64,000 nt of DNA, taken from the NCBI GenBank assembly GCA_044225365.1, contig JBGAIQ010000019.1, forward strand, positions 32,001-96,000, given 5' to 3'. The stretch is from Planctomycetota bacterium. Lineage in GTDB: Bacteria > Planctomycetota > B15-G4 > JADJEK01. Position 1 is the stretch's first letter. The number at the start of each line of letters is the position of its first letter. Made by a program: the position numbers and the translations under genes. A model generated the notes under the pieces. The model saw only the letters and a list, made by a program, of their open reading frames with translations, made no database searches and was not told where the DNA came from. Below are positions 3,817 through 33,000 of the stretch, one piece after another.

Positions 3817-5448
3817 GTGAGCGAACCTTCGCGCAAGGACCGGCGAATCCGTCGCGGTGCGACGTGGACCCTCGCGTTCGCGATCGTCGCGGCCGCGTGC
3901 GGTGCGTGGCTCCATCGTGATTTCGGAACGACGTGGGACGATCCGTTCCACGCGCGGGTCGGCGCGCTCGCGCTGCGGTACTTCCGCGAGGGGTTCGCGC
4001 TGGAGGTGATTGCGACGATCGAGTCGTTCGGGACCGCGCGCATCTACGGCCCATTGCACGATCTCGTCCCTGCGGTGATCCGCGAATTCACCGGACACGG
4101 CGATGCCGTCGATCCCTCGCTCTTCGAGTTGCGCCACGCCTGGAATTTCGCCTTCGCGTTGCTCCTCGTCCCGGCGATCGCCCTGGTAACGCGACGCGTC
4201 GCGTCTCCCGCGCTGCCCGTCTTCGCGTGCATCGCACTCTTCGCGCAGCCGCGATTCTTCGGCGACGCGTTCCTCAACTCGATCGACACGTCGTTCGCGG
4301 TCGCGATGGCGTGGCTGCACGTCGCGCTGCTTCGTTCGTTGCGGATGGGCGCTCCGCGGCGAGTCGATTTCGCCCTGCTCGGCGGCGCGCTCGGATTCGT
4401 ACTGATCGAGCGACCGGGCGCGCTCCCCCTCGGGCTCGTTCTCGTCATCTTGACCTTTGCGCTGCGGGATCTGTTGCGGCGCAAGCAGGCGGGAGAGGGA
4501 GAGACGGGTTTCCTCTTCGGGGTCTGCGTCGCATTCGCGATCGCCTGGGTGCTGATGATCCTGCCCTGGCCCTCGGCACACTTCGAACCGCTGATGAAGC
4601 CGTTCGAGGCGATGAGCGCGTCGGTGCGCTTCGTCGAGTCGTATCCCGTCCTCCACGACGGGGCCTACGTCTCGAGCTCCGAGCTGCCGCGCTCGCACGT
4701 TCCCTGGATGTTCCTGATCACCACTCCGTTGCCGACGCTCGCGCTCTGGGCGATCGGCCTCTTCGTCACCGCGGGGCGAATCATGAGGGCACCGCGCGGC
4801 CGTTCGCGGCATGCTCTGTTCGTCGCGCTCCTGTGGCTCGGTGTGCCGTTCGTCGGGATCGTCGTCGCGCGACCGAACGTGTACGACGGGATTCGTCACT
4901 TCCTCTTCGTCCTTCCCGCGGTCGCGATCTTCGCCGGTCTCGGCGCCGTTCGGGTGGCAAGCCTCGCGAGCCGATTCCTCGGCCGAATCGGAGGTCATGC
5001 CTGCGCGCTCGTCCTGCTGCTCCTTCCCGTGATCGATTGCGTGCGCTTGCATCCCTACGAGTACGTCTTCTTCAACTCGCTCGTCGGCGGCGTCGAGGGC
5101 GCGAGCGGTCGGTACGACACCGAGTACTTCGCAACGTCGTATCGCGAGGGCATGGCGCTCGTGAATGAACGGGCGCGGCGCGAGCCTGCGCGCACCTTCC
5201 GGGTCGCGGTCGGCGGATCGGAATTGATGTTGCCCGGCGTGATCGCGGCCGCGGCGAGGAACGTGGAAGTCGTCCTGGTGCGCCCCGATCGACCGAATCC
5301 TTCGGCCCTGCCGAACGACATCGACTTCTATCTCGGTCTCGCGCGCTACCGCCTCGAACAGCGTCCGTTCGAGGATTCGCCGGTGATCGCGACGATCGGG
5401 CGCGATGGAGCCATCTTCGCGGTGCTGCGCGGCCACGAACAACGCTGA
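3817..5448 (+). CDS. GT-C fold membrane glycosyltransferase (GT39/PMT_2-like)
   Basis: TWDDP motif after the first TM helix, many TM helices, YDGIRHFLF and HPYEYVFFN..DTEYFATSY motifs. Confidence 0.7.
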   Translation: MSEPSRKDRRIRRGATWTLAFAIVAAACGAWLHRDFGTTWDDPFHARVGALALRYFREGFALEVIATIESFGTARIYGPLHDLVPAVIREFTGHGDAVDPSLFELRHAWNFAFALLLVPAIALVTRRVASPALPVFACIALFAQPRFFGDAFLNSIDTSFAVAMAWLHVALLRSLRMGAPRRVDFALLGGALGFVLIERPGALPLGLVLVILTFALRDLLRRKQAGEGETGFLFGVCVAFAIAWVLMILPWPSAHFEPLMKPFEAMSASVRFVESYPVLHDGAYVSSSELPRSHVPWMFLITTPLPTLALWAIGLFVTAGRIMRAPRGRSRHALFVALLWLGVPFVGIVVARPNVYDGIRHFLFVLPAVAIFAGLGAVRVASLASRFLGRIGGHACALVLLLLPVIDCVRLHPYEYVFFNSLVGGVEGASGRYDTEYFATSYREGMALVNERARREPARTFRVAVGGSELMLPGVIAAAARNVEVVLVRPDRPNPSALPNDIDFYLGLARYRLEQRPFEDSPVIATIGRDGAIFAVLRGHEQR

Positions 5449-5513: not shown

Positions 5514-7589
5514 ATGACGACGACGATCACGAGAGACCGGCTGCGACGAAAGGCGTCCCCGGCTCTGCTGTTCCTCTTCACTCTTGCGAGCGCCGCGACG
5601 GCCGAGGATCGCCATCCACTCACGATCCACGACATGCTCGCGATGCAGCGCGTGGGGGACGTCGCCGTGTCGGCGGGCGGCACCAAACTCGCGTTCACCG
5701 TGCGCACGACGGACGTCGCCGCGAACACGGGTCGCTACGACGTGTGGCTCGTCGATGCGAAGGAGGGCGGTCCGCGTCGCCTCACGTCGAACGTCGCGAA
5801 CGACACGTCCCCGCGTTTCTCGCGCGACGATCTCTCGATCTACTTCCTCTCGTCCCGCAGCGGGTCCTCGCAGATCTGGTCGCTGTCCCTCATGGGCGGC
5901 GAGCCGACGCAGATCACGGACCTGCCGCTCGACATCGACAACTTCCTCGTCTTCCCCGATGGCCGTCGATTCCTCGTCTCCATGGAGGTGTATCCCGACG
6001 CCAAGGACCTCGCCGAGACCGCGGCGCGCGATGAAGCGAAGGCGAAGTCCAAGATGAAGGCGAAGGTCTACGACTCGCTCCTGTTCCGCCATTGGGATCA
6101 GTGGGAGGACGGCAAGCGCAGCCATTGGTTCACGCTCGACGCCGTGACGGGGAAAGCGACCGACCTGATGGCGGGCATGCCTTGCGACGCTCCGAACAAA
6201 CCGTTCGGCGGTGCGGAAGAAGCGACGATCCGGAACGACGGCAAGACGGTCGTGTTCGCGACGACGAACATGGGTCGCGAGGCGGCGTGGTCGACGAACG
6301 TCGATCTCTACAGCGTTCCTTCCGACGGATCCGCGGCGCCGACCTGCCTCACCACCGACAACCCGGCGACCGACAATCTCCCGCAATTCTCACCCGACGG
6401 ACGTTTCCTCGCGTACGTCGCGATGAAGCGGCCCATGTACGAATCGGATCGTCAGGGGCTCATGATCCGCGAGGTCGAGAGCGGAAAGGTCCGTGAGATC
6501 GCGCCCAACTGGGATCGTTCCGCGAGCGGCTTCACGTGGAGCCGCGACGGAAAGACGCTCTACGCGACCGCCGATCACATCGGCAACACCGGCCTGTTCG
6601 CCGTCGACGTCGGAAGCGGCACGGTGAAGCCGCTCATCGAGAAGGGCGCCGCGGGCGGCCCGGTCGCGATCGAGGGCGGAGTTGCGTTCCTCTGGAACGA
6701 CATGAAGCACCCCGATGAGATCCACACGCTCGACGCCGCGGGGAATCGAAAGGTCCTGACCGCGATCAACGCACCGCTGCTCGAGAAGATCGCCTTTGGC
6801 GACTACGAGCAGTACTCGTTCAAGGGCGCGCACGACGACACGGTCTACGGCTACGTGATGAAGCCGTGGAACTACGAGAGCGGCAAGAAGTACCCCGTCG
6901 CGTTCTTGATCCACGGCGGCCCGCAGGGCTCGTTCTCGGATCACTTCCACTATCGTTGGAACGCCGAAGCGTTCGCGGGCCGCGGACTCGGCGTCGTGTT
7001 CGTCGACTTCCATGGGTCGACGGGATACGGCCAGGCCTTCTGCGACTCGATCCGCGGCGATTGGGGCGGCGCACCGTACGAGGACTTGATGAAGGGCCTC
7101 GACGCCGCGCTCGCGAAGTACTCGTTCCTCGATGGCTCGCGCGTCGCGGCGGCGGGCGCGAGCTACGGCGGTTACATGATCAACTGGATCGCGGGCCAGA
7201 CGGATCGCTTCAAGTGCCTCGTCTGCCACGACGGCAATCTCGACAACCGAATGGCCTACCTCGACACCGAGGAACTCTGGTTCGACGAATGGGAGCACCA
7301 CGGCACGCCGTGGGAGAATCCCGACGCGTTCAGCAAGCACAACCCGATCGACTTCATCAAGAACTGGAAGACTCCGACGCTCGTCCTGCACGGCGGCAAC
7401 GACTTCCGCGTCGTCGATACGCACGGCATGGCGACGTTCACGGCGCTGCAGCGCAAAGGGATTCCGTCGAAGTTCGTGTTCTTCCCGGACGAGAATCACT
7501 GGGTGCTGAAGCCGCAGAATTCGATCCTCTGGCACGACAGCGTGCTCGACTGGATCGATCAGTGGACCAAGTCGCCGCCCGCCAAGTGA
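5514..7589 (+). CDS. S9 family (prolyl oligopeptidase/acylaminoacyl) peptidase, secreted
   Basis: Signal peptide, PD40/TolB-like propeller, IHGGPQ, GASYGG nucleophile, DFRV Asp and ENHW His. Confidence 0.92.
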   Translation: MTTTITRDRLRRKASPALLFLFTLASAATAEDRHPLTIHDMLAMQRVGDVAVSAGGTKLAFTVRTTDVAANTGRYDVWLVDAKEGGPRRLTSNVANDTSPRFSRDDLSIYFLSSRSGSSQIWSLSLMGGEPTQITDLPLDIDNFLVFPDGRRFLVSMEVYPDAKDLAETAARDEAKAKSKMKAKVYDSLLFRHWDQWEDGKRSHWFTLDAVTGKATDLMAGMPCDAPNKPFGGAEEATIRNDGKTVVFATTNMGREAAWSTNVDLYSVPSDGSAAPTCLTTDNPATDNLPQFSPDGRFLAYVAMKRPMYESDRQGLMIREVESGKVREIAPNWDRSASGFTWSRDGKTLYATADHIGNTGLFAVDVGSGTVKPLIEKGAAGGPVAIEGGVAFLWNDMKHPDEIHTLDAAGNRKVLTAINAPLLEKIAFGDYEQYSFKGAHDDTVYGYVMKPWNYESGKKYPVAFLIHGGPQGSFSDHFHYRWNAEAFAGRGLGVVFVDFHGSTGYGQAFCDSIRGDWGGAPYEDLMKGLDAALAKYSFLDGSRVAAAGASYGGYMINWIAGQTDRFKCLVCHDGNLDNRMAYLDTEELWFDEWEHHGTPWENPDAFSKHNPIDFIKNWKTPTLVLHGGNDFRVVDTHGMATFTALQRKGIPSKFVFFPDENHWVLKPQNSILWHDSVLDWIDQWTKSPPAK

Positions 7590-8254
7590 CGGCGGATCCA
7601 GAAGCGCTTCAGTGTGCGGGGGCTGTCCTTCGGGAGTTCGCCGCGTCCATGCACGATCCGCGTGTTGTCGACGTAGAGGCTCTGGCCCGGCTCGAGTCGC
7701 ACGTCGATCCGCGGCGAGGATTCGATCGCGTCGGAGAATCTCCGAAAGGTCTCGCGAACCGCCGGGTCTTCGATCGGAGCGACGTTCCAAGCGGCGTAGT
7801 AGACCCGCGGCCCTCCGCTGTCACGCGAGAGCAGCGGGACGAGCGTCGCGTCGAGGCGGCCGTCGACGTCCGGGCAACGCATCGTGATCTGGCCGAGACG
7901 ATCGCGATCGTCGTCGCTCAGTGAGTCGAGGATCGGCCTGCTGTCGACGAGGCGCGTCGCGCCCCCGATCTCCGCCGCGCGGACGCAATACCACGCGATC
8001 CGATCGACGTAGTGCTGATCCGTATGCAGTCCGAGTTCGCGCGGCGAATGCGCGCCGCGCGGACTGTTGCCGAGCTTGATGTCCTCGATTCGCAGGACGC
8101 TACCCAGGCATCTCCCGAGGTGGTAGAACGACCCGACGCGAATCGGTTGCTCGAGCACGTGGAAGCCGCGAGATTCCAGATCCCGCTCGATCATGGCGAC
8201 CGCTGCGGCGCCATCGAACGGGACTTCGCGAGGAGTGTCGGTCGATGCGGACAT
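7559..8254 (-). CDS. TauD/TfdA-family Fe(II)/2-oxoglutarate dioxygenase
   Basis: LHTD (HxD) motif, WYCVRAA..GGATRLVD, and DNTRIVHGR..R distal His/Arg motif. Confidence 0.82.
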   Translation of the reverse strand: MSASTDTPREVPFDGAAAVAMIERDLESRGFHVLEQPIRVGSFYHLGRCLGSVLRIEDIKLGNSPRGAHSPRELGLHTDQHYVDRIAWYCVRAAEIGGATRLVDSRPILDSLSDDDRDRLGQITMRCPDVDGRLDATLVPLLSRDSGGPRVYYAAWNVAPIEDPAVRETFRRFSDAIESSPRIDVRLEPGQSLYVDNTRIVHGRGELPKDSPRTLKRFWIRRHLAGGDLVH

Positions 8255-8345
8255 CACGATGTCGTATCCTCTCGGAATCTTCTCGCTTTCGTCGGCGACT
8301 CGGAGCGGCATTCGACATGACCAACGAACGGGGCAGCGAGCGCAA

Positions 8346-8852
8346 ATGAGCTACTCCACTCCATACCACGAACACGGCGTTCCCATCGACTCCGAGTTCT
8401 GTCGCGGCTCGAACACGGCGCGCAAGGCGCGACACGTTCTCGAGGATTCGCGCAGATTGCTGGGTTGCGACGAGGCCGCTCTCTGGGTGTTCAGCAAGGA
8501 CAACCAGAATCTCGTCGCCGCGCTGAATCACGGCAAGCACGAGAAGAGCGTCGAGGGACTCGAGGTCCAGATCCGCGGTTCGCTCGTCGGGCTCGTCGCA
8601 ATGACGGGCGAGGGCATCTGCGTAGGGCCCGATGCGAACTACAACCCGGAGGTCGCCCGCGCCCTCGACGTCAAGACGTACGCGATGGTCGCCGCCGCCG
8701 TCGTGGTCGACGACGAGATCTGTGGCGTGATCTCCGCGGTCAACCTGTACGGGACGACGGAGTCGATCTTCACCGTCGAGCACCTGCGTGCGGTGCAATG
8801 GGCGGCGTACGTCATGGGTCTCGTGCTCTCGGATTGCAAGAAGCGTGATTGA
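8346..8852 (+). CDS. Stand-alone GAF domain protein
   Basis: ..AALWVFS..GSLVGLVAMTGEGI..MVAAAVVVDDEICGVISAVN..FTVEHL is a GAF-type pattern. Confidence 0.75.
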   Translation: MSYSTPYHEHGVPIDSEFCRGSNTARKARHVLEDSRRLLGCDEAALWVFSKDNQNLVAALNHGKHEKSVEGLEVQIRGSLVGLVAMTGEGICVGPDANYNPEVARALDVKTYAMVAAAVVVDDEICGVISAVNLYGTTESIFTVEHLRAVQWAAYVMGLVLSDCKKRD

Positions 8853-9636
8853 CGCGCCGCTCACCGACGACGAATTGACCGCCGCGACCGGCGAGGGAAT
8901 TCGGGTGCTCGTGATGGACTCCGGAATCGAGTCCGATCACCCGACGCTCGTCGGCCGCGAGATCCCGAACTTCGAGGTCCTGCCGTTCCCGATCGGCGCC
9001 GACGTCACGTATCGAGTCCAATCGGCGCCCGGCGGCGATGCGTTCGGGCACGGAACCGCCGTCGCTTCCCTGCTCGTCGCGCATGCGCCAGGCGTGAAGA
9101 TCGAGAGCTTGCGGATGCTCGACGCCGATCGTCAGGGCAGTTCCGAGCGCGTCCTCGCCGGGCTGCGCTGGGCGATCGAGCGGCGCTTCGACATCGTGAA
9201 CTGCAGCTTCGGCACCTTCGGTCCGTCGACGACCAAGTTCCTCGCCTCCTACAAACGAGTCGTCGACATCGCATTCTGTGAGAACGTGCTGCTCATCGGC
9301 GCGTGCTCGAACTCGGACCATCGACTGACGTCGCTCCCGGCCTCGTTCCCGACCGTGCTCTCGACCGATGCCGGACGGATCGAGGATTCGCCGCTGCCGA
9401 AGGTGAAGCGACGCAAGGGACAACTCGTCGAGTTCGTGACGCGCGGCGTCGACGTCTCGGTGTCCTGGAAGGATGGCAGTTCGCGCCTCGTAACGGGTAG
9501 CAGCTTCGCTGCCCCGCACCTCGCGGCGCTCGTCGCCCGCATCCGACAATTGCGACCGCATTGGAATGCTTGCGAGATGAAGGCGGAGTTGTACCGTCGA
9601 TCCGAGCCCGTCACGGCCGCGGACGACGCCGACTGA
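8845..9636 (+). CDS. S8 (subtilisin-like) serine peptidase, no signal peptide or prodomain
   Basis: Triad motifs VMDSGI, GHGTAVAS and TGSSFAAPH. GTG start overlaps the end of the GAF gene. Confidence 0.88.
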   Translation: MIDAPLTDDELTAATGEGIRVLVMDSGIESDHPTLVGREIPNFEVLPFPIGADVTYRVQSAPGGDAFGHGTAVASLLVAHAPGVKIESLRMLDADRQGSSERVLAGLRWAIERRFDIVNCSFGTFGPSTTKFLASYKRVVDIAFCENVLLIGACSNSDHRLTSLPASFPTVLSTDAGRIEDSPLPKVKRRKGQLVEFVTRGVDVSVSWKDGSSRLVTGSSFAAPHLAALVARIRQLRPHWNACEMKAELYRRSEPVTAADDAD

Positions 9637-9711: not shown

Positions 9712-10383
9712 GTGAGTGAAGCCGACGAATCGAAGAAGCCATCTCCATCGCTCGTACGCGCTCGCGGCGAGCCCTCGCTCGCAGAGTCCGCGCGCGAGTG
9801 GGATGCGTTCTTCACGAGCGGCAGGTATCGCGAGGAATGGCACCTCGATCAGGCGTCCCCCGAACTCATGTGCCTGCTCGCAGCGGGGATCGTCGTGCCG
9901 CCAGGGCGCGCGCTCGACCTGGGTTGTGGAGGTGGCACGGAGGCCGTGCATCTCGCGCAACAGGGTTTCACGGTGACGGCCCTCGACGTTTCGGGCGAGG
10001 CACTTGCGATGACTCGGCGGCTCGCGGCGCGGCGCGGCGTCAAGCTTGCAACGCTTCAGGCCTTCGTGCCGAGAACCGAGCTCCCCGACCAGTCCTTCGA
10101 CTTCATCAATGATCGCAGCTGCTTCCACGCCATCGAGCCGAGGCTCGAGGTGCTCACCGCCTACGCCGCGGAGATCCAGCGCATCCTGGTTCCGGGCGGC
10201 GTCCTGTTCATTCGCAGGTTCGGTCAGCCGCAGATCTCCCTCTCGACGTTCTCGTCCGTATTCTCAGAAGAAGCCGGATTCGATCTCGGGCGCGTTCAAG
10301 AGGTCCCCTTCCACGAACCTCATTTTCCCTCGCGAGTCGCCGTGATCCGGTGGCGGGGGAAGAGTGCGTCGCGAGCATCATGA
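9712..10383 (+). CDS. Class I SAM-dependent methyltransferase
   Basis: ALDLGCGGG motif I, VTALDVS, FDFINDRSCFH, LVPGG. Confidence 0.88.
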   Translation: MSEADESKKPSPSLVRARGEPSLAESAREWDAFFTSGRYREEWHLDQASPELMCLLAAGIVVPPGRALDLGCGGGTEAVHLAQQGFTVTALDVSGEALAMTRRLAARRGVKLATLQAFVPRTELPDQSFDFINDRSCFHAIEPRLEVLTAYAAEIQRILVPGGVLFIRRFGQPQISLSTFSSVFSEEAGFDLGRVQEVPFHEPHFPSRVAVIRWRGKSASRAS

Positions 10384-10396
10384 TGGAGGCAGTCGC

Positions 10397-11578
10397 ATGA
10401 GCATCGTCCTCGACCGTCGATCGTCGTCGCAGCCGCAATCGAACGATCCGCGAACCCTCCTTCCGCTCGAGGTGTTCTTCCAGAACATCCGCTACGTGAC
10501 GCTCAAGCTGACGAACGGCTGCAATCTGAAGTGCTCGTACTGCAACGTCGAGGCCGATTCGCCCACCACGCCGAAGATGAAGATCGAGACCTTCAAGAAG
10601 GTCGCGAAGCTCCTCATCGAGAACTCGAAGTTCCCGCAACTCGGACTCGAATTTCACGGCGGCGAGCCGATGCTCCTCCCCGATGCGTGGTACGAAGAAG
10701 CGGTCGGTTACGCGGGAGAACTCGCGAAGAAGCACGGCAAGTTCATTACGCATCCGCTGCAGACGAACGGCACGTTGCTCACGGAGGAACGCGCGAACAA
10801 GCTGATGTCGCTCGGAATCCAGATCGGCTTCTCGATCGACGGTCCGCCCGACATCAATGACAAGATGCGCGGCGCCGGCAAAGCCGTCGAGAAGGTGATT
10901 CGACGCATGAAGTCGCAGGGCCGCGGCTTCGGCTGCCTGCTCGTCCTGAACCGCTCGAACTGCAATCACATGTACCGGGTGATGGACTATTTCCGGGAGA
11001 TCGGGATCGAGAACTACCGGATCAACTTCCTGCAGCCGCAGGGTCGTGGCTTGACGCAGGATCTCCTGACGGCGGAGGAGATGTTCGCGGGTCTCAAGGG
11101 CATCTTCGATCACATGCTCGACACGAATTGCTCGGTGCTCGAGTCGACGACGCAGACGATGGTCCAGCGGTTCGCGATCGGTCGCAATCCGCAGCCGGCG
11201 CTCTCCTGCTGGGAATTCCAGTGTCAGGCCGGCCGCGTCTATTGCGCAATGAACGATCGCGGCGAACTCCACGCCTGCGGCACGGACATGCAGCACCATC
11301 GACTCGGTGACATCGACACGCCACTGAACCGCCCGCACGTGGAGGCGGTGCTGAAGAAGCTTCACCACAAGGACGAGTGGTACGTGCGCTGCTTCGACTG
11401 CAAGGCGCGGCGCATCTGTTCGATGTCGTGCCCGACGAGCGACCACAACGATCTCTTGTATCGCGAACGCGAGTGCGCGTACACCAAGATGATCTACCGC
11501 TACTACGCGGAGAACGAAGACAAGGTGCTGCAGCTCCATGCCCGGCTGCAGCAACTCCGCCCGAATGGGGCGATGTAA
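10397..11578 (+). CDS. Radical SAM/SPASM-domain peptide maturase
   Basis: CNLKCSYC (CX3CX2C), FHGGEP, QTNG and SIDGP motifs. C-terminal Cys-rich SPASM region with CFDCKARRICSMSCP..EC (CX2CX5CX3C). GGAGG RBS. Confidence 0.92.
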   Translation: MSIVLDRRSSSQPQSNDPRTLLPLEVFFQNIRYVTLKLTNGCNLKCSYCNVEADSPTTPKMKIETFKKVAKLLIENSKFPQLGLEFHGGEPMLLPDAWYEEAVGYAGELAKKHGKFITHPLQTNGTLLTEERANKLMSLGIQIGFSIDGPPDINDKMRGAGKAVEKVIRRMKSQGRGFGCLLVLNRSNCNHMYRVMDYFREIGIENYRINFLQPQGRGLTQDLLTAEEMFAGLKGIFDHMLDTNCSVLESTTQTMVQRFAIGRNPQPALSCWEFQCQAGRVYCAMNDRGELHACGTDMQHHRLGDIDTPLNRPHVEAVLKKLHHKDEWYVRCFDCKARRICSMSCPTSDHNDLLYRERECAYTKMIYRYYAENEDKVLQLHARLQQLRPNGAM

Positions 11579-11641
11579 GCGCGGAATTCCGCGCCTACGA
11601 TGCGAGGGCAGAGGTACTACGTCCCAAAAAGGAGTTTGAAC

Positions 11642-12088
11642 ATGGCTATCGTCCGCAGTGAGGACGGCCGTTTCTTCGACGTCGACGACACGGAACTCGA
11701 CAAGCATGAGATCAAGCCGGAAGACCTCCCGACCGGATCGGTCTACGCCCGCCCGCAAGGTGGGCCCGGGATGGGCGGTCCCGGCGCCGGTGGACCCGGG
11801 ATGGGCGGCCCGCGCGGCGGCGGCGGTGGTCCGGTGCAACTCGTCATCAATCTCGGCGGCGGCGGTGGAATGGGCGGCGGTGCGCCGCAGATGGGCTCCG
11901 GCCCGCAGGCGTCGGGTCCGGTTCAGCGCGGTCAGGGCGGGCAACAGGCCGGCGCGCGCGGTGATGTCCAGGCTCACAATTGGTGCGGCATGCCGTGGCC
12001 GTGGGGCAACTGGCACAACTGGCACAATTGGAACAACTGGAACAACTGGATGAACTGCTGGAACAACTGCTGGCACAACTGCAGCTGA
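11642..12088 (+). CDS. Putative RiPP precursor peptide (148 aa): acidic leader, Gly/Pro/Met-rich spacer, (WxN)8/Cys core
   Basis: AAGGAG RBS. C-terminus is DVQAH-NWCGMPWPWGNWHNWHNWNNWNNWMNCWNNCWHNCS. Located between the rSAM/SPASM and DUF692 genes. Confidence 0.85.
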   Translation: MAIVRSEDGRFFDVDDTELDKHEIKPEDLPTGSVYARPQGGPGMGGPGAGGPGMGGPRGGGGGPVQLVINLGGGGGMGGGAPQMGSGPQASGPVQRGQGGQQAGARGDVQAHNWCGMPWPWGNWHNWHNWNNWNNWMNCWNNCWHNCS

Positions 12089-12185
12089 GATCCAGCGCGG
12101 GGTGCGCCCGGTCGAGCGACCGCGCGCACCCCGCTCACCTCGAATCCCTCGTCCGTCCAAATCGCCCGGCGCCGAAGAGGTCCTC

Positions 12186-12575
12186 ATGACTCGGGTCTAC
12201 TCTCTCGATGGTCGCGTCTTCGAACTCGACGAATCGATGCTCGCCAAGTCGCAGATGGCGGCCGAAAAGGTGAGTCGCCTGATCGACAAGGACACGTTGC
12301 CCGAGCCGCCGCCGGTCGGCGACTTCCCGCAACAGGGCATTCCGCCGCACATCCAGCAGATGCTCGCGCAAGGGGTCGAACTGCCGATCCCCGAGGAAGC
12401 GCGTCACCTGGTGCGTGCGCGCAGCTTCATGGACGGAACGATCGTCATCGACATCGACGTTCGAGCGCTTCCCGGTTCGTCGGCGTGCGGGGGTCCCGCC
12501 TGTGGGCCCGCTCCGCGCGATCCCGCGGGGCAAACGCGGCCGGGCGAATGCGACTCCGGGGCCCGTCCGGCATGA
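12186..12575 (+). CDS. Small protein with precursor-leader-like N-terminus (second precursor or partner protein)
   Basis: MTRVYSLDGRVFELDESMLAK aligns with the precursor's MAIVRSEDGRFFDVDDTELDK. GAGG RBS; stop overlaps the DUF692 start (ATGA). Confidence 0.7.
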   Translation: MTRVYSLDGRVFELDESMLAKSQMAAEKVSRLIDKDTLPEPPPVGDFPQQGIPPHIQQMLAQGVELPIPEEARHLVRARSFMDGTIVIDIDVRALPGSSACGGPACGPAPRDPAGQTRPGECDSGARPA

Positions 12576-13711
12576 GGCCACGGCTTCCGGCGTACGGAGT
12601 GGGCATCGGCTACCGATACTGCATCCATCGCGAGATCTTGCGCTGCGCGCCGATGATCGATTTCCTCGAAGTCCCGTCGGAGGATTACGTCGAGGACGAT
12701 CGGCGAGCGCGATTCGATCCCGACGAATCCCTGCTGCGCGCCGCGGTCGAACGCTTCCCGTGCGTCGCGCACGGCACGGGTCTCTCGCTCGGCACTGCCG
12801 CGCCGCCGGATGAGAACTATCTGCAGCGGCTCGCGAACTTCGCCGAACGGACGCCGATCGGCGAGTATTCCGAGCACCTGTCGTTCATCCGCGGGATCGA
12901 TCACGAGGTCGATGCGTTCATGGCGCTCCCGTTCACCGACCTCGGCGTCGCGATCGCCGCCGAGAACGTGATGCGTTCCGCTCGAGCTCTCGGCGTCCCC
13001 TTCCTCGTCGAGAACGTGAGCTACTACTTCGCGCTGCCGGAGTCGACGTACAGTGAGGCCGAGTTCATCTCGCGGGTCGCGCAGGCTGCTGATTGCGGCA
13101 TCCTGCTGGATGTCGCGAACCTCCACATCAACGCCACGAATCACCATTACGACCCCGAGGCCTTCATCCGCGCCTTGCCGAAGGAGCGCGTGCTCCATTC
13201 GCATTTCTGCGGCGCGAGCCGAGGTCCGGATCGGTTCCTCTACGACACGCACTTCGAAGTGACGATGCCCGCCGTCTGGCGCATCCTCGATACGGCGTTG
13301 CGGGAGACGGCGCTGCGTGCGCTCGTGTTCGAACGCGATCAGCGGTTCGTTCCGTTCCAGGAGCCGATGGAAGAGATCTTCCAGGCGCGCGAGTTGTTCC
13401 GCCGGCATCGCAAGACCAAGCCATTGCTGCCCGTCACGACGCACTCGCCGGCTCCCGCGGGTGGCGACGATGCGGTCTACTCTCGGGAGTTGCGAAAGCT
13501 CCAGGACGTGCTGTGCCGGTTGTTGACCGACGAGGATCTCGGGCGCGCGGTCGAGCGCGAGGGTGAAACCGCGCTCGTCCACACCGGGATCGACCGCGAT
13601 TCGCGGCGCATCCTCGCCGCGATTCCGGGCGTCGCGCGCGAGCGCATCGGCCGGCGGCTGCGCGAGCGGCTGCGAAAGGGTGGGCGCTCCAACGTGGAAT
13701 CGTTGCCATGA
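12572..13711 (+). CDS. DUF692 / multinuclear non-heme iron-dependent oxidative enzyme (MNIO) with C-terminal helical extension
   Basis: GVGIGYR, HGTGLSLG, YSEHLSF, LVENVS, LLDVANL..N, HSHFCG, YDTH and VFERD motifs of DUF692, plus an extra C-terminal region of about 90 aa. Confidence 0.88.
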   Translation: MRPRLPAYGVGIGYRYCIHREILRCAPMIDFLEVPSEDYVEDDRRARFDPDESLLRAAVERFPCVAHGTGLSLGTAAPPDENYLQRLANFAERTPIGEYSEHLSFIRGIDHEVDAFMALPFTDLGVAIAAENVMRSARALGVPFLVENVSYYFALPESTYSEAEFISRVAQAADCGILLDVANLHINATNHHYDPEAFIRALPKERVLHSHFCGASRGPDRFLYDTHFEVTMPAVWRILDTALRETALRALVFERDQRFVPFQEPMEEIFQARELFRRHRKTKPLLPVTTHSPAPAGGDDAVYSRELRKLQDVLCRLLTDEDLGRAVEREGETALVHTGIDRDSRRILAAIPGVARERIGRRLRERLRKGGRSNVESLP

Positions 13712-15600
13712 CCGAATCGAGAGATCCGGGGCCGCCGCCGGGCATGAAGGACGCGGGACCTCCGAAGGGAGTTGCGGATAGTGGTCCGCCGCCGGGGATG
13801 AAGGACGAACCCCCGGCCGATGGCGGTCCACCGCCCGGGATGATCGACGCCCCGCCGAAGCTGGATCGGGAGACGATCGCGTTCTTCGTACCCTACGTGC
13901 GAAAGCAGCGCGGACGTCTCCTCGCGATCCTCGGCATGCTCCTGTTCTCCGCGCTGATGCCGGTCGCGATGAGCTTCCTGCCGACGAAGCTCGCTCAGAA
14001 TTGGCATCCGGGCGGCGAACACGAAGTCATGAAGTGGCTCGTGGCATTCCTGGCGCTCTCGGTCGTCGCGCTCACGCTCGCGCCCGTCCAGGGTTATCTG
14101 ACGGCGCGCGTCGCGCAGGACCTCGCGTGTGATCTGAAGGGCGCGATCTTCCGCAAGGTCGGCGCGATGTCGAAGACCGCGATGGCGTTCCGGTCGGTCG
14201 GATCGCTCGCGCATCGCAGCTCCGGCGATGTCGCTCATCTCCAGGAGTTCCTCGCCCGCTTCGTGCCCGATGCCGTCGCGAACGTGATCCAGCTCGTGTT
14301 CGTCGTCCTCGCGATGCTCTGGCTGCAGCCGGTCATCGCGATCGTCGGGCTCGTCCTCGTTCCGACGATCTGGTTCATCATGGACCGCTTCAACGCGAAG
14401 GTTCGACTGCTCGCACGCAGTTCGCAGAAACAGAGCGAGTCGTCGCTCACGCGGCTGATCGAGGGCGTCGCGGGGTACATCGATCTCGTCGCCGCCGGAC
14501 GCTTCCCCAAGGCCGCGGACGAATACGTGAGCGTGCTCGACGATCTGCGGCGCACGGCGATCAAGATGACGCTGACGAGTTCGATCGCCGCGCTCATTCC
14601 GAGCATCGCGTTCATGGCGATCACGAACGGCTACTACTTCGTCGCCGCGGCCGACGAGAAAATGCTCGCCGCGACGACGGTCGGATTCGGCCAGGTGATG
14701 ACCTTCGTTTCGCTGATCAACGTCGTGCGCATGCCGATCATGACGCTCGCTCGGTTCTTCACCGAGACCGCGATCGCCGCTCCGAGCTTCCACGAAGTGA
14801 AGAAGCTCCTCGAGTCGCCCGAGGTGTCCGCGCCGACGCACGGCGTGAAGATCGACGGCAGCGCGATCGAGTTCAAGGGCGTGGTATTCAGTTACGGCCC
14901 AGGCTTCCCGCCCGTGCTCGATGGCGTCTCGTTCCGGATTCCCGAAGGGAGCTTCACAGCGATCGTCGGCGAGACCGGGTCCGGCAAGACGACGCTCTTC
15001 CACATGCTGCTGCGGCTCCTCGAGCCGACGAGCGGAGAGATCCGCCTCGGCAACTCGACGCTCGGCGCGATCGCCCTCGAGGATTTGCGGTCGTACGTCG
15101 GATTCATTCCGCAGTCGCCTTTCCTGTTCGATGCGACGATTCGTGAGAACGTCGCGATCGCGCTCGCCGAGAACGAAGTCGATCAGGAGCGATTGCTGCG
15201 GGCCGTGAAGCTCGCGCGGCTGGAGCCCGTCGTCGAGAAGCGCAAATCCCAGGGCGGACTCGATGCCAAGGTCGGCGCCGCCGGCGCGAGTCTCTCGGGC
15301 GGAGAACGGCAGCGCGTCGCGCTCGCGCGCGTCTTCCTGCGCGATCCCAAGATCATCGTCTGCGACGAATACACGGCGAACATCGACAACGCGACGGCGC
15401 GGATCATCCAGGAGTCGATCGCACGCGAATTCGCCGGGCGCACGCGCGTCGTCATCACGCATCAGCTCTACACGATCCGCGGGGCGGATCAGATCCTGGT
15501 GCTCGACCGCGGGCGAATCGTCGATCGGGGCACGCACGAGGAACTCGTCGCGCGCGGCGGGCTGTATCGTGAGATGTGGGAAGTCCAGCGGCTCGCGTGA
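13708..15600 (+). CDS. ABC exporter, fused permease/ATPase (no C39 peptidase domain)
   Basis: TM domain, Walker A GETGSGKT, LSGGERQR signature, Walker B IIVCDE, H-loop ITHQ. ATGA overlap with the MNIO gene. Confidence 0.92.
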   Translation: MTESRDPGPPPGMKDAGPPKGVADSGPPPGMKDEPPADGGPPPGMIDAPPKLDRETIAFFVPYVRKQRGRLLAILGMLLFSALMPVAMSFLPTKLAQNWHPGGEHEVMKWLVAFLALSVVALTLAPVQGYLTARVAQDLACDLKGAIFRKVGAMSKTAMAFRSVGSLAHRSSGDVAHLQEFLARFVPDAVANVIQLVFVVLAMLWLQPVIAIVGLVLVPTIWFIMDRFNAKVRLLARSSQKQSESSLTRLIEGVAGYIDLVAAGRFPKAADEYVSVLDDLRRTAIKMTLTSSIAALIPSIAFMAITNGYYFVAAADEKMLAATTVGFGQVMTFVSLINVVRMPIMTLARFFTETAIAAPSFHEVKKLLESPEVSAPTHGVKIDGSAIEFKGVVFSYGPGFPPVLDGVSFRIPEGSFTAIVGETGSGKTTLFHMLLRLLEPTSGEIRLGNSTLGAIALEDLRSYVGFIPQSPFLFDATIRENVAIALAENEVDQERLLRAVKLARLEPVVEKRKSQGGLDAKVGAAGASLSGGERQRVALARVFLRDPKIIVCDEYTANIDNATARIIQESIAREFAGRTRVVITHQLYTIRGADQILVLDRGRIVDRGTHEELVARGGLYREMWEVQRLA

Positions 15601-15648: not shown

Positions 15649-16698
15649 GTGACCTCGCAATCGGTCCACGGCCGCGGCGCGGCCGACAATCCCGACAACC
15701 GATTCGTCCGCCTCACGGTCGAGCCCGATCCGGAGTGCAGCCAAGAAGAGCGGGCGATCGTCACCGAGTACTTCGTCGATGCCTCGAAGACGATCCTGTC
15801 GCGCAACGACAGCCCCGACATCGGATTCGAGTTCAGCGTCAACCCTTATCGGGGCTGCGAGCACGGATGCATCTACTGCTACGCGCGGCCGACGCACGAA
15901 TACCTCGGCCTCTCCGCGGGGCTCGAGTTCGAGAGCAAGATCTTCGTGAAGGAGAAGGCGCCCGAACTCCTGCGCGCGGAACTGATGAACGAGAGGTGGC
16001 GGCCGCAGGCGATCAACTTCTCGGGTGTGACCGATTGTTATCAACCGCTCGAGCGACGGCTGCGCCTCACGCGGCGCTGTCTCGAAGTGCTGATCGAGTT
16101 CAAGAACCCGGCGGCCGTCATCACCAAGAGCGCGCTGATCGAGCGCGACATCGACGTGCTGGCCGAACTCGCGGCGATCGGCGGAGCGCTCGTGGGCATC
16201 ACGATCACGACGCTCGATGAGTCGCTCGCTTCCAAGCTCGAGCCGCGCGCCGCTTCCCCGCGGCGGCGAATCGGCGCGATCGCAGCACTGGCAAACGCGG
16301 GCGTCCCGGTGCACGTGATGACGGCGCCGATCGTGCCCGGGCTCACCGATCACGAGATCCCGGCGATCCTGAAGGCCGCTGCAGAAGCCGGTGCGCGGTC
16401 AGCGGGATGGACTCTTCTGCGGCTCCCGCACGCCGTGAACCCGTTGTTCGAGGACTGGCTCACGCGGTACGCGCCGGGTCAGAAGGAGAAGGTGCTGCGA
16501 CGCATCGAGGACGCGCGCGGCGGCGAGCGGCACGACTCCAGATTCCATGTTCGGATGCGCGGTGAAGGACGCATCGCCGAGGAAGTTGCCGACATGTTCG
16601 CCTTCGCGCGCGACCGCGCGGGCCTCGCGCCGGATGCTCCGAAACTGTCCGCGACGCACTTTCGTCGACCTGGCCCGCAACAGGGCAAGCTCTTCTGA
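15649..16698 (+). CDS. PA0069/Rv2578c-family (SplB-like) radical SAM protein
   Basis: NPYRGCEHGCIYCYARPTH, TDCYQPLE, LEPRA, and C-terminal QGKLF. Confidence 0.9.
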   Translation: MTSQSVHGRGAADNPDNRFVRLTVEPDPECSQEERAIVTEYFVDASKTILSRNDSPDIGFEFSVNPYRGCEHGCIYCYARPTHEYLGLSAGLEFESKIFVKEKAPELLRAELMNERWRPQAINFSGVTDCYQPLERRLRLTRRCLEVLIEFKNPAAVITKSALIERDIDVLAELAAIGGALVGITITTLDESLASKLEPRAASPRRRIGAIAALANAGVPVHVMTAPIVPGLTDHEIPAILKAAAEAGARSAGWTLLRLPHAVNPLFEDWLTRYAPGQKEKVLRRIEDARGGERHDSRFHVRMRGEGRIAEEVADMFAFARDRAGLAPDAPKLSATHFRRPGPQQGKLF

Positions 16699-30096: not shown

Positions 30097-33000
30097 TCAC
30101 TCGGCGATGACGTTGCTCCGACCGAGCACCGCACCGAACGCGTCGAGTGCGTCTTCGTTCATCGCAACCTTGAATTTCGACCCGGCTCGGATCACGTCGG
30201 CGCGCCCCGTGCCGGTGTCGAAGCACAGGTAGAGCGGGATCTCGCCGGGGAACTTCTTCACCACGGCCTGCACCTTCTCCACGAGCGGGATGTCCGGCGA
30301 GCGCAGTCGCAGCACGAGGCGCGTGATCTGTCGCGAGAGCAGGGCCTCGAGGGACTCGAACTTCACGATGCGGAGAGACGGCTCCTCGCGCGAACGGTCG
30401 ACGGTGCCGCGGAACACGCCGATGGCGTCATCGATGAGGGCGTTCTGCGCACGTTCGTAGTCCTCGGCGAAGCAAACGGCGTCGCAGCTCTCCCCGTCCG
30501 CGCCGGTGACCTTCAGCATCGCCATCTTCTTGCCCATCGAACGGCCGCGCTTCGTGACCACCGTTCGCAATCCCGCGACGGCGCCCGCAAGGCTGACTTC
30601 GCTCTTGTCCTCGAGGTTCCGAAGATCCGCGAGGGTGTGAGTGGAGAATCGACGCAGGACTCCCGCGTTCTGCCGCAGCGGATTGTCGGAGAGGTAGAAG
30701 CCGAGTGCTTCCTTCTCACGCCGCAGCTTCTCGCGCAGCGGCCATTCCTCGATCGCGGGAGGACGGTACTCCGGTTTCTCGTCGTCGCCGAGTGCGTCGA
30801 AGAGCGACTTCTGCCCGCTCTTCTTGTCGCGCTGCGCGATCTGTCCGATCTTCTGCAGGGAGTCGAGCGAAGCGGTGAGCGCCGCGCGCGGGAAACCGGT
30901 CCAGTCGAACGCGCCCGCGGCGATGAGCCTTTCGCCAGCCGCGCGATTGAGCGACGCGGCGTCGACGACCTCGAACATCTCGGCGATCGACTTGAAGGGA
31001 CGTCCGAGCTTCTTCCGGGCCTCGAGCACGGCTTCGACCGCTTTCTCGCCGACGCCCTTGATCGCGCCGAGTCCAAATCGGATCTTCCCTTCCTCGATCG
31101 CGAAATCGAGTTGCGAGGCGTTGACGTCGGGACCGAGGACCTTGATGTTCGAGAGCGCGCATTCGCCGAGATAGAGTCCGACCTTGTCGGTATCGCCTCG
31201 GTCGATCGACATACAGGCAGCGAGGAACTGCTCGGGGAAGTTGGCCTTGAGGTATGCGGTGCGGTAGGTGACGAGTCCGTAGGCGACGGTATGGCTCTTG
31301 TTGAAGCCGTAGCCTGCGAAGAACGCCATCGTCTCCCAGATCTCCGACGCGAGCTTCTCGTCGCAGCCGCGCGCGGCGGATCCCTTCACGAACTTGCCCT
31401 TGAACTTCTCCATCACCTCGGGCTTCTTCTTGCCCATCGCCTTGCGGAGGTTGTCCGCTTCTTCGAGCGTGAAGCCGGCGAGCACGTTCGAGATGCGCAT
31501 GATCTGTTCCTGGTAGACCATGACGCCGTAGGTCTCTTTCAAGATGCTCTCGAGCGAAGGATGCGGGTATTCGATTGGCTCGCGGCCGTGCTTCCTGTTG
31601 ACGAACGTCTCGACCATTCCCGAGCCGAGCGGGCCCGGTCGATACAACGCGAGGATCGCGACGATGTCCTCGAACACGTCGGGCTTCATGCCCTTCAGCA
31701 GTTCGCGCATGCCCGTGGATTCGAGCTGGAACACGCCCGTCGTCTCACCGCGCGTCAGCATCTCGTAGGTCTTGCGGTCGTCGAGAGGGGCGGTAGCAGA
31801 GTCGACCTCGTGACCCGATTCACGGATGAGTTGTTCGGCGCGCTCGATCACGGTGAGCGTCTTCAGGCCGAGGAAGTCCATCTTCAGCAGCCCGATCGAT
31901 TCGAGCTCGGTCATCGCGAACTGGGTGTTCACTTCGCCTTGCACTACGCAGAGCGGCGCATACTCGATGAGCGGTCGGTCGGTGATCACGACGCCGGCGG
32001 CGTGCGTCGACGTGTGTCGGTTGAGGCCTTCGATGGAGAGCGCGATCTTGAACAGGTCCTCGAGCTGCTTGTCATCGTCTCGCAGCTTCTTCAGATCCGC
32101 ATCCTGCTCGATCGCGTCCTTCAGCTTGGTGCCGGGAGTATTCGGGATCTTCTTGCTGATCTTGTCGACGAGGACCGGATCGATGCCGAGGACGCGGCCC
32201 GTGTCGCGAACCGCGGCCTTCGCGGCGAGCGTTCCGAACGTCACGATCTGGCACACCGACTCCGTGCCGTACTTCTTGCGCACGTACTCGATGACGTCGC
32301 CGCGCTTGTCGCGGCAGAAGTCGATGTCGATGTCGGGCATCGACACGCGGCCGCGATTCAGGAAGCGTTCGAACAGCAGGTCGTAGCGCAGGGGATCGAC
32401 GTCGGTGATCCGCAGGCCGTAGGCCACGATCGAGCCCGCTGCCGAGCCGCGGCCGGGGCCGACCGGGACGCCGTGCGCCTTGCCCCAGTTGATGAAGTCC
32501 GCGACGATCAGGAAGTACGCGACGAAGCCCATCTCCTCGATGACTTCCATCTCGTACGCGAGGCGCTTCTCGATCGCGTCGGTGAGCGGCCCGTAGCGCT
32601 CGATGCAGCCTTCGCGACAGAGGCGCCGGAAGTAGACCTTCGGATCCTCGCCCGTCGGCACCTCGAAGTGCGGCAGGTGGAACTGGTCGAGCTTGAGGTC
32701 GACGTTGCAGCGCGACGCAACGGCGTAGGCGTTCTCGCAGAGTCGATCGGCGCCGCGGAACAGGGTCGCCATCTCCGAGGTCGAGCGGAAGAACTGCTTC
32801 TCGGTATCGAGGTGCCAGCGATTCTCGTCGGCGAGCGTTTTGCTCGACGCCACGCACATCAACACCTCGCGGGCCGGAGCGTCCTCGGCCCGGAGATAGT
32901 GCACGTCGTTCGTGAGCACCGGGATCGCTCCCGTTGCTTCCGCCAGTTCGAGAAGGCCATCGCGCTGCTTGCGTTGCAAGGGCAGCTCGTTGTCCATCAC

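Follow-up and report, generated by a model that had tools for sequence, protein, structure and literature searches.

Which cross-links does a radical S-adenosylmethionine (SAM) enzyme place on a precursor peptide that ends in eight W-x-N units, and does a second oxidative enzyme act on the cysteines among them? These questions are raised by a locus on contig JBGAIQ010000019.1 of a Planctomycetota bacterium (GTDB lineage Bacteria; Planctomycetota; B15-G4; JADJEK01; GenBank assembly GCA_044225365.1). We analysed positions 32,001 to 96,000 of its forward strand, a stretch of 64,000 nucleotides called the window hereafter, with window positions counted from its first letter. [quoted passage not shown] Three-residue cyclophane peptides, such as darobactin, dynobactin, and the triceptides, belong to a young class whose rigidity is drug-like; for the majority of its families, no function has been assigned. 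On balance, we slightly favour the view that the locus produces a triceptide-like poly-cyclophane RiPP (a peptide that is ribosomally synthesised and then modified post-translationally), in which C-C staples join Trp to Asn and the MNIO optionally alters Cys.

Precursor gene and its repeat core

The ORF very probably encodes a RiPP precursor that is processed by the adjoining rSAM. The preliminary description of this DNA had claimed such a precursor next to a radical SAM enzyme, and the rSAM/SPASM gene indeed lies directly upstream, with the synteny maintained across the precursor family. The 36 residues after the DVQAH junction comprise 10 Trp, 12 Asn, 4 Cys, and 3 His. They hold eight W-x-N motifs, six of them contiguous at a period of three, followed by two that each come after a Cys at a period of four, exactly as had been described from the letters. 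Only 34 of 100,000 shuffled orders of these residues attained eight W-x-N motifs. At the DNA level, Tandem Repeats Finder (TRF) located a 9-bp unit in 4.9 copies (12007-12050, 91% matches) and then a 12-bp unit in 2.5 copies (12053-12082, 94% matches), confirming the tandem expansion first proposed by eye; another 30-bp unit in 2.4 copies (11747-11820) resides in the Gly/Pro spacer. The preliminary description was likewise borne out as to an acidic leader, a Gly/Pro/Met spacer, and a DVQAH junction. DVQAH is unchanged in the closest homologues; variants at other loci include EVQGR, AVAAY, VEPYG, and GVQPY.

The frame of the ORF extends in the 5' direction to 11600. We placed the start at 11642 because all homologues begin with MAIV or MAIL and an AGGAG sequence precedes this ATG by 7 nt. 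The precursor matched zero families of Pfam and NCBIfam. DNA of high GC content yields many false ORFs, including a 659-residue ORF on the opposite strand (10208-12187), which we rejected as a GC artefact since the plus-strand genes have strong family matches, and a look for sequencing runs listed no RNA run that covers the stretch. That the precursor ORF is itself merely an open frame generated by repeats in GC-rich DNA has a negligible chance of being true: homologues with 33-72% identity occupy the same place after the rSAM gene in several phyla, they have kept the leader but not the spacer, which drifts, the ATG comes after a Shine-Dalgarno-like site, and the family extends to 189 clusters. 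The GC content at third codon positions (GC3) points the same way, amounting to 0.805 in the ORF; it reaches 0.92 in the core, compared with 0.76-0.86 for the neighbouring genes.

Precursor family and conservation of the core

Apart from the protein of the window itself, a word-index search retrieved eight precursor relatives. The closest ones (P0002-P0004, 63-72% identity) retain DVQAH as well as the C-terminal Cys pattern and carry nine, eight, and eight W-x-N motifs, respectively. Searching with the rSAM identified seven loci in species genomes, which are metagenome bins labelled Verrucomicrobiales, Planctomycetes, or Hyphomicrobiales, and 21 further loci in metagenome contigs. A leader-bearing precursor lies beside the rSAM orthologue at 18 of these 28 loci; L019 duplicates L018, and L013 ends before the core. 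As for the other ten, the contigs of L022-L026 end in or just after the rSAM gene, L027, L028, L029, and L031 encode distant rSAMs (23-31% identity), and only the beginning of a gene resembling the precursor paralogue ORF B (see below) is seen at L021. Of the 60 host-genome relatives that were searched, not one has the rSAM; the cluster is therefore patchy and offers no vertical series for comparison.

We aligned 29 precursors (alignment A2). M1, A2, I3, G9, and one W-x-N unit (W136, N138) are invariant in all 29. The profile of this alignment was then compared with 1.84 billion representative proteins, a homologue search of the kind that the preliminary description had proposed for comparing repeat counts, and found 189 clusters (50% identity) at E ≤ 0.001, 97 of them at E ≤ 1e-10. 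Its members have in common an MAI[VL]R leader, a Gly/Pro spacer that includes a hydrophobic strand, a junction sequence, and a core of repeats. The strand (VQLVINL-type) is aligned in most of the 29 precursors, is missing in L008 and L009, and recurs in the ORF-B-like paralogues.

For a census of the cores, we used 148 representatives, namely the best 150 of the 189 minus P0002 and P0006. At least two W-x-N motifs within the last 50 residues are found in 68 representatives; 11 have F-x-N or Y-x-N repeats instead, 9 are Cys-rich without such repeats, and 60 are fragments, frameshifted calls, or core-less proteins. The 68 W-x-N cores contain two to eight units each (mode 4), which are spaced by 4 (96 intervals), 3 (38), or 5 residues (19). 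The middle position holds R (110), H (61), N (14), or another residue, and the spacer position is mostly taken by C (49), H (20), or Y (12). In P0017, P0043, P0037, P0065, P0091, P0128, P0149, and P0153, Trp has given way to Phe or Tyr (F-R-N-C, Y-R-N, Y-x-N), which fits an aromatic-x-Asn rule and not a Trp-only rule. Of the 68 W-x-N cores, 22 contain no Cys, and neither do the cores of L004, L006, L012, and L016 (W-H-N-H-H or W-H-N repeats), which adjoin orthologous rSAMs of 51-54% identity. A penultimate Cys (N-C-x end) occurs in 26 of the 68 cores, with the ending NCY in 17. Aromatic-x-Asn is the only core feature constant across the family; Cys and spacing are variable. Conservation of the W-x-N register among homologues, set beforehand as a test of the preliminary description, was borne out: one unit is found in 29 of 29 precursors, and the register is kept at a period of 3, 4, or 5 and without Cys.

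The number of units had also been suggested to vary. It does so between homologues, with eight units here, nine in P0002, and two to eight in the 68 representatives; no such variation was seen among near-identical contigs. Metagenome contigs over 10900-12700 (runs X2-X5) break at the repeat, at 12049-12057, and the contigs spanning the array (X2 record 5, X3 record 13, and X5 record 28) show no insertion or deletion. A 43-nt step-back joint in one X3 contig, with a depth of 2, was too weak to use. Contigs of X4 and X5, from sludge and bioreactor metagenomes, continue from 12049-12057 into different repeats of the W-G-N or W-F-N type. This suggests that a number of related repeat peptides occur side by side in communities of this kind.

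Radical SAM/SPASM enzyme and the nature of the cross-link

The rSAM contains the CxxxCxxC motif and eight conserved Cys in the SPASM region. It lacks an N-terminal RiPP recognition element (RRE), in some orthologues the radical SAM core begins only a few residues from the start, and no PqqD-like gene was seen in the annotated loci. Its homologues form 183 clusters (90% identity) at E ≤ 1e-30, all of which are generically named. The enzyme remains below the curated cut-off in all 70 NCBIfam models that it matched. The DynA model aligns over the full length (104.6 bits, cut-off 450), followed by DarW (82.4, 650), DarE (80.8, 650), AmcB (NF041718; 77.4, 425), YhhB (NF041707; 72.1, 445), GrrM/OscB (TIGR04261; 68.3, 310, over residues 50-226 only), and WgkB (NF050035; 61.9, 650). 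The thioether-related models PapB (114.9, 340), QhpD (104.3, 453), and SCIFF (74.1, 425) were matched as well, and anSME scored 105.1 bits.

The AlphaFold2 model of the rSAM (predicted local distance difference test, pLDDT, 90.3) has anSME, CteB, and ChlB as its nearest folds. The motif EFHGGEP shares its His with VFHGGEP of ChlB, where CteB has Phe and anSME has Gln. Using the six catalytic positions referenced to CteB in PMC10288494, we could read equivalents at four (N61, H98, Q133/T134, and S157); the comparison was made only with ChlB, with which the His is shared. The residue after CxxxCxxC is Asn, unlike the Phe or Tyr of CteB, anSME, and ChlB. According to the excerpt of PMC10288494 used here, DarE is nearest to anSME by full-length similarity. 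Sequence and model together place the rSAM in the anSME-like, RRE-less SPASM group that includes DarE, and neither sequence nor fold decides its chemistry.

The constant W-x-N, the occurrence of Phe or Tyr at the first position, and the existence of Cys-free cores make Trp-to-Asn cyclophanes the best-supported reading, and by sequence and analogy the cross-link is probably a Trp-to-Asn C-C bond. The excerpts of the cited papers provide the precedents: OscB joins Trp C7 to the C-beta of Asn or Asp and XncB joins Trp C6 to the C-beta of Arg or Asn, both from residue i to i+2 (PMC11002830), and the dynobactin enzyme forms a Trp-Asn Csp2-Csp3 bond (PMC10288494).

Several observations weigh against this assignment. 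The thioether makers PapB and QhpD, together with anSME, are among the best-scoring models for the rSAM, while the enzyme falls under the cut-off of every cyclophane family (GrrM/OscB, YhhB, AmcB, and DynA). Sequence and fold searches place CteB and anSME above ChlB, CteB being the top sequence match in the PDB. In the W-x-N cores, 81 of 139 Cys come directly after a W-x-N, leaving a Cys-Asn link possible. Nine of the 148 leader-sharing representatives have Cys-rich cores devoid of aromatic-x-Asn repeats; other chemistry therefore exists under the same leader. Such cores, of the C-G-R-x or C-Y-S type, are seen in P0040, P0069, P0083, P0093, P0099, P0104, and P0147.

Much of this evidence would fit an rSAM acting as a thioether synthase of the sacti or ranthi type, connecting the sulfur of Cys to the C-alpha or C-beta of Asn, with W-x-N as a mere scaffold. 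Asn-to-Cys thioethers are made by NxxcB and QmpB (PMC11851443, in the excerpt), and the S8 protease of the locus resembles QhpE. We nevertheless consider this explanation improbable, as the invariant residues are W and N, all thioether models score far under their cut-offs, and cores without any Cys still stand beside orthologous rSAMs. From the Cys-free W-x-N cores it follows that a thioether is not the common chemistry of the family, even though it is possible where Cys follows Asn.

Another explanation accepts the Trp/Asn array as the target and assumes a different product, such as a Trp-O-C ether or a C-N bond as in darobactin or dynobactin, a Trp-Trp link, attachment at another atom, or modification of only a subset of the eight units. 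The scores of 80-105 bits with the DarE, DarW, and DynA models and the unusual Asn after CxxxCxxC could be taken in its favour. The excerpt of PMC11851443 reports ether or hydroxylated products of DarE and XncB when the third residue is changed. Against it, the i to i+2 relation of W-x-N is the only constant, the Trp-to-Trp distance being 3, 4, or 5, and the residue classically donating its C-beta is an Asn in third place (PMC11002830, in part). We regard such a product as unlikely, and the Trp-to-Asn C-C cyclophane remains our preferred assignment.

MNIO as accessory enzyme

The nearest models of the MNIO are HvfB (193.9 bits, cut-off 360) and BufB (188.8 bits, cut-off 310), both of which are Cys-modifying. 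The enzyme is present at six loci (window, L005, L007, L009, L015, and L017), and a seventh MNIO of the cluster type is encoded on another contig of the genome of L008. No MNIO was found in the genomes carrying L003, L004, and L006, for which completeness is not given. The MNIO is thus accessory to the cluster, and the two-zone design of rSAM and MNIO claimed in the preliminary description is no feature of the family. At all seven MNIO-linked loci the core contains Cys, and at L005 the sole Cys is the penultimate residue; the cores of L004 and L006 are without Cys. This co-occurrence of MNIO and Cys is a weak hint at a link.

The second part of the same claim, that the MNIO targets Cys, draws on the below-cut-off kinship with HvfB and BufB and on this weak co-occurrence. 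The sequences leave the action of the MNIO on the Cys of this precursor evenly balanced. Three facts count against it. The cores of L003 are Cys-rich, yet no MNIO was found in its genome. The contrast between seven positive loci, all with Cys, and three negative genomes, one with Cys and two without, has a chance of about 0.07 by hand count, among loci that are kin. In the window, the stop codon of ORF B overlaps the MNIO start and the tail of ORF B has three Cys, making ORF B a possible alternative substrate.

Hence, the MNIO might leave the precursor Cys alone and act on another residue, by aromatic hydroxylation or by C-terminal or Asn chemistry, or on ORF B, whose Cys-bearing tail would be coupled to it in translation. 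We rate this as rather unlikely, though by no means negligible. The excerpt of PMC12257519 describes MNIOs that hydroxylate Phe and Tyr in the Pbs pathway, Phe being hydroxylated alongside a B12-dependent rSAM, so a non-Cys target here stays conceivable, and the MNIO scores under the BufB and HvfB cut-offs. In the opposite direction, every one of the seven MNIO-linked loci has core Cys, down to the single penultimate one at L005, no ORF-B-like gene was found at four loci that have the MNIO (L005, L007, L009, and L017), and the ORF-B-like proteins of L003, L011, and L015 lack Cys in their tails. We down-weighted ORF B as a substrate because its Cys-bearing tail is not conserved.

Neither the cluster of the window nor the annotated loci were found to contain a gene for a DUF2063/RRE partner. 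All five cluster MNIOs of full length possess a C-terminal extension of 100-130 residues. It is poorly conserved, has no Pfam match, and was modelled with moderate confidence as four helices (residues 305-370). A protein atlas search with the extension, and likewise one with ORF B, returned no usable match, and the predicted complex of MNIO and precursor scored 0.00 against a mark of 0.32, which is informative neither way. MovX may work without a partner by means of an extra domain, according to the part of PMC12452194 that was accessible. In the text of this survey of the MNIO landscape as accessed, the terms 'rSAM', 'SPASM', 'Planctomyc', and 'Trp' are absent, and 'radical SAM' and 'tryptophan' occur in the reference list only.

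Organisation of the gene cluster

The features of the cluster are compiled in Table 1. The usual neighbours of the precursor-rSAM pair are a pair of GAF and S8 protease genes and an ABC exporter gene, homologues of the latter being present in 11 loci (L003-L008, L011, L014, L015, L017, and L020). The GAF gene stands directly beside the S8 gene, often with overlapping ends, at eight loci: window (8193-9636), L003 (2144-3581), L005 (7605-8878), L006 (7945-9179), L011 (2564-3833, minus strand), L015 (2793-4274), L017 (9339-10802), and L023 (1090-2470). This constant pairing suggests a two-part or ligand-gated leader peptidase. The nearest NCBIfam models of the S8 protease are mycosin and QhpE, at 74 bits versus a cut-off of 165. 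Homologues of the TauD-like enzyme adjoin the rSAM in L014, L017, and L023, and the methyltransferase is shared only with the closest locus, L023 (70% identity).

Table 1. Features of the precursor locus in window coordinates.
Feature	Coordinates	Strand	Remarks
TauD/TfdA-like Fe(II)/2-oxoglutarate dioxygenase, divergent, probable tailoring hydroxylase	7559..8311	-	PF02668, 62.9 bits
GAF-domain protein	8193..8852	+	PF01590, 39.8 bits; start uncertain
Subtilisin-like S8 serine protease, probable leader peptidase	8788..9636	+	PF00082, 72.6 bits; start uncertain
Class I SAM-dependent methyltransferase, accessory	9712..10383	+	PF08241, 61.2 bits
Radical SAM/SPASM peptide maturase without RRE domain	10364..11578	+	PF04055, 63.5 bits
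Shine-Dalgarno-like AGGAG	11630..11634	+	7 nt 5' of precursor ATG, read off the sequence
Precursor peptide gene, 148 aa	11642..12088	+	ATG at 11642, stop 12086-12088
Acidic leader of precursor	11642..11740	+	M1, A2, I3, G9 invariant in the 29-precursor alignment
Hydrophobic strand-like stretch VQLVINL within the Gly/Pro spacer	11834..11854	+	29-precursor alignment
Junction DVQAH, candidate leader cleavage site	11963..11977	+	Identical in P0002-P0005 and P0007
Core, 36 aa, 8 W-x-N, 4 Cys, on 9-bp and 12-bp tandem repeats	11978..12085	+	
GC-rich hairpin, 16 bp, just 3' of precursor stop	12097..12134	+	No T-run after it
ORF B, core-less precursor paralogue	12186..12575	+	BLASTP versus precursor E 0.004; GC3 0.777
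MNIO (DUF692) enzyme with helical C-terminal extension of about 100 aa, accessory	12572..13711	+	PF05114, 234.3 bits versus gathering 25
ABC exporter, permease and ATPase, without C39 peptidase domain	13708..15600	+	PF00664 and PF00005

The plus-strand genes of the cluster mostly overlap or nearly abut. Besides the overlap of ORF B with the MNIO gene, the MNIO stop overlaps the start of the ABC gene. Wider gaps separate the S8 and methyltransferase genes (75 nt), the rSAM and precursor genes (63 nt), and the precursor and ORF B (97 nt), the last of which holds the hairpin. The region 12080-12190 folds with -50.5 kcal/mol (z -3.2), and 1 of 200 shuffles folds equally well. The terminator scan does not call the hairpin, which may protect the message of the precursor or reduce transcriptional read-through to the genes that follow, namely ORF B, the MNIO gene, and the ABC gene.

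ORF B shares the leader start and the hydrophobic strand of the precursor, has a Pro-rich stretch, and is without a W-x-N core. In L003 (6429-6776), L011 (5820-6143), and L015 (9203-9472), a similar gene separates the precursors from the ABC gene, and another stands at the cut end of L021 (1407-1529). Profile matches that look complete and are core-less include P0126, P0060, P0105, P0123, P0133, and P0084. The cyclophane synthase WprB requires the small helper protein WprC (PMC11851443, excerpt); by this analogy only, ORF B may be a candidate helper.

The marine-type loci L014 (761-3870) and L017 (146-5711) encode a cyclic-nucleotide-binding protein, a long ABC protein (866-896 residues), and a TauD-like enzyme; L017 additionally encodes an adenylate/guanylate cyclase with a tetratricopeptide repeat (TPR) sensor. 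Together with the GAF proteins, the cyclic-nucleotide genes of L014 and L017 hint at cyclic-nucleotide control. In L015, a gene for a sigma factor of the extracytoplasmic function (ECF) type (4388-5089) lies between the S8 protease and the rSAM. Upstream in the window, an S9 prolyl-oligopeptidase-family protein with PD40 repeats (5514-7589) has a syntenic counterpart in L023, the closest locus, and nowhere else (77% identity across the final 111 residues), and it is therefore probably a host neighbour and not a member of the cluster. Directly after the ABC gene follows a radical SAM protein of the PA0069 family (15649-16698; 460.7 bits, cut-off 360), which is of housekeeping type and was unseen in the related loci.

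Comparison with known systems

The GrrA/OscA-GrrM/OscB triceptide systems resemble the locus in their repeated aromatic-x-Asn units, the Gly-rich precursor, and the adjoining radical SAM/SPASM enzyme. In contrast to GrrA/OscA, the leader here is of cytoplasmic type, acidic, and begins with MAI[VL]R, and the units are packed with 0-2 spacer residues and not with Gly runs. The GAF-S8 pair, the core-less paralogue, the optional MNIO, and the TauD-like enzyme occur here and, as far as seen, not in the GrrA/OscA system. TIGR04260 (GrrA/OscA1, cut-off 31 bits) does not match the precursor and matches 0 of 29 family members even at E ≤ 10, and a genome-wide TIGR04260 search misses the locus. The suggested likeness to GrrA/OscA, AmcA, or XyeA precursors found no counterpart among the models, as no NCBIfam model matches the precursor; those of AmcA and XyeA were not singled out by accession.

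As in triceptide systems, aromatic-x-X3 motifs stand here beside an rSAM/SPASM gene, in the form of eight W-x-N motifs conserved in the family. XncB/XyeB, YhhB, AmcB, WprB, and HtkB likewise act on a three-residue motif with an aromatic residue first and an sp3 donor third, and several independent rings per precursor have been described, WprB having three WPR motifs and FwwB five cross-links (excerpt of PMC11851443). The present system differs from the XncB/XyeB-type synthases in having up to 8-9 units, partly contiguous, and no RRE or WprC-like gene was recognised. With DynA, DarE, and DarW it shares the RRE-less, anSME-like SPASM enzyme, and the DynA model aligns with this rSAM from end to end; the Trp-Asn bond of the dynobactin enzyme is likewise made within a W-x-N context (PMC10288494). 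Dynobactin and darobactin, however, derive from a short decapeptide or heptapeptide core and not from a 148-residue precursor with a repeat core, and the make-up of their clusters is different.

The radical SAM domain of ChlB (PDB 9gm3 and 9gmc) has a cyclophane-forming, RRE-less fold similar to that of the rSAM (TM 0.68-0.73, E 4e-15), including the FHGGEP motif. ChlB was crystallised with the leader region of its substrate, and the title of the PDB entry states direct leader binding. The identity is only 18%, however, and ChlB is fused to an alpha-ketoglutarate HExxH domain, as stated by a title cited in PMC12452194, whereas the dioxygenase here is separate and of TauD type.

For the MNIO, the bufferin (BufB/BufC) and oxazolin (HvfB/HvfC) systems share the PF05114 catalytic domain and supply the nearest NCBIfam models. 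In contrast to these systems, no DUF2063/RRE partner gene was found here and a helical extension is present instead, the precursor is without a signal peptide, and a SPASM rSAM is present. The biphenomycin-like Pbs pathway also combines an MNIO and a radical SAM enzyme on one precursor and produces three-residue aromatic macrocycles (PMC12257519, in the excerpt). According to the same excerpt, its rSAM depends on B12 and joins two ortho-Tyr residues, and its MNIO hydroxylates Phe; the enzyme here is of SPASM type and stands beside W-x-N, and the MNIO is dispensable in relatives.

Judged by its sequences, the system works like the triceptides and stands outside the curated GrrA/GrrM, AmcB, YhhB, WgkB, DynA, and DarE families. 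Particular to it are the leader family, the sub-threshold rSAM family, the packing with 0-2 spacer residues, the GAF-S8 pair, the core-less paralogue, and the optional MNIO without a partner. Our literature search found no paper on this leader or cluster; key triceptide papers and supplementary family lists lay outside its coverage, and a prior mention is possible.

Proposed pathway and significance

For a triceptide-like product, the RRE-less rSAM would bind the conserved leader directly. At each W-x-N, it would abstract a hydrogen from the beta-carbon of Asn, and the resulting radical would add to the Trp indole found two residues upstream. The product would contain up to eight three-residue cyclophanes, each with a mass change of -2 Da, as in the triceptides and the first ring of dynobactin. 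As an optional tailoring enzyme, the MNIO might oxidise Cys of the same precursor, possibly the penultimate Cys of an N-C-x C-terminus, and its helical C-terminal extension might take the place of the DUF2063/RRE partner that is missing. Further decorations could come from the TauD-like enzyme and the methyltransferase. Presumably, the GAF-S8 pair cuts off the leader close to DVQAH, and the product leaves the cell through the ABC transporter. Speculatively, metal might be bound by the Cys and His residues that many family members have in their spacers.

A bolder proposal, which we consider doubtful, is a distinct RiPP class. One leader family and an RRE-less SPASM enzyme would yield a rigid rod of up to eight or nine back-to-back Trp-Asn staples, with spacer Cys or His and MNIO-derived Cys heterocycles at its ends, serving as a secreted metal-binding or signalling peptide. 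A GAF-gated S8 protease and a core-less leader copy, which acts in trans as a helper or regulator, would complete the system. If this were true, both the GAF-gated S8 leader protease and the trans-acting core-less leader would be without precedent in RiPP biology.

The locus defines an unnamed precursor family of 189 clusters and an unnamed rSAM family of 183 clusters, in metagenome bins of Planctomycetota, Verrucomicrobiota, and Hyphomicrobiales. It carries one of the densest W-x-N arrays of its family and pairs a SPASM rSAM with an MNIO that has no usual partner protein. With periods of 3, 4, and 5 and two to nine units, the family represents a natural experiment on the tolerated number and spacing of rings. 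If the staples form, the rSAM would be an enzyme that installs many consecutive cyclophanes on a simple repeat, which would be useful for peptide engineering.

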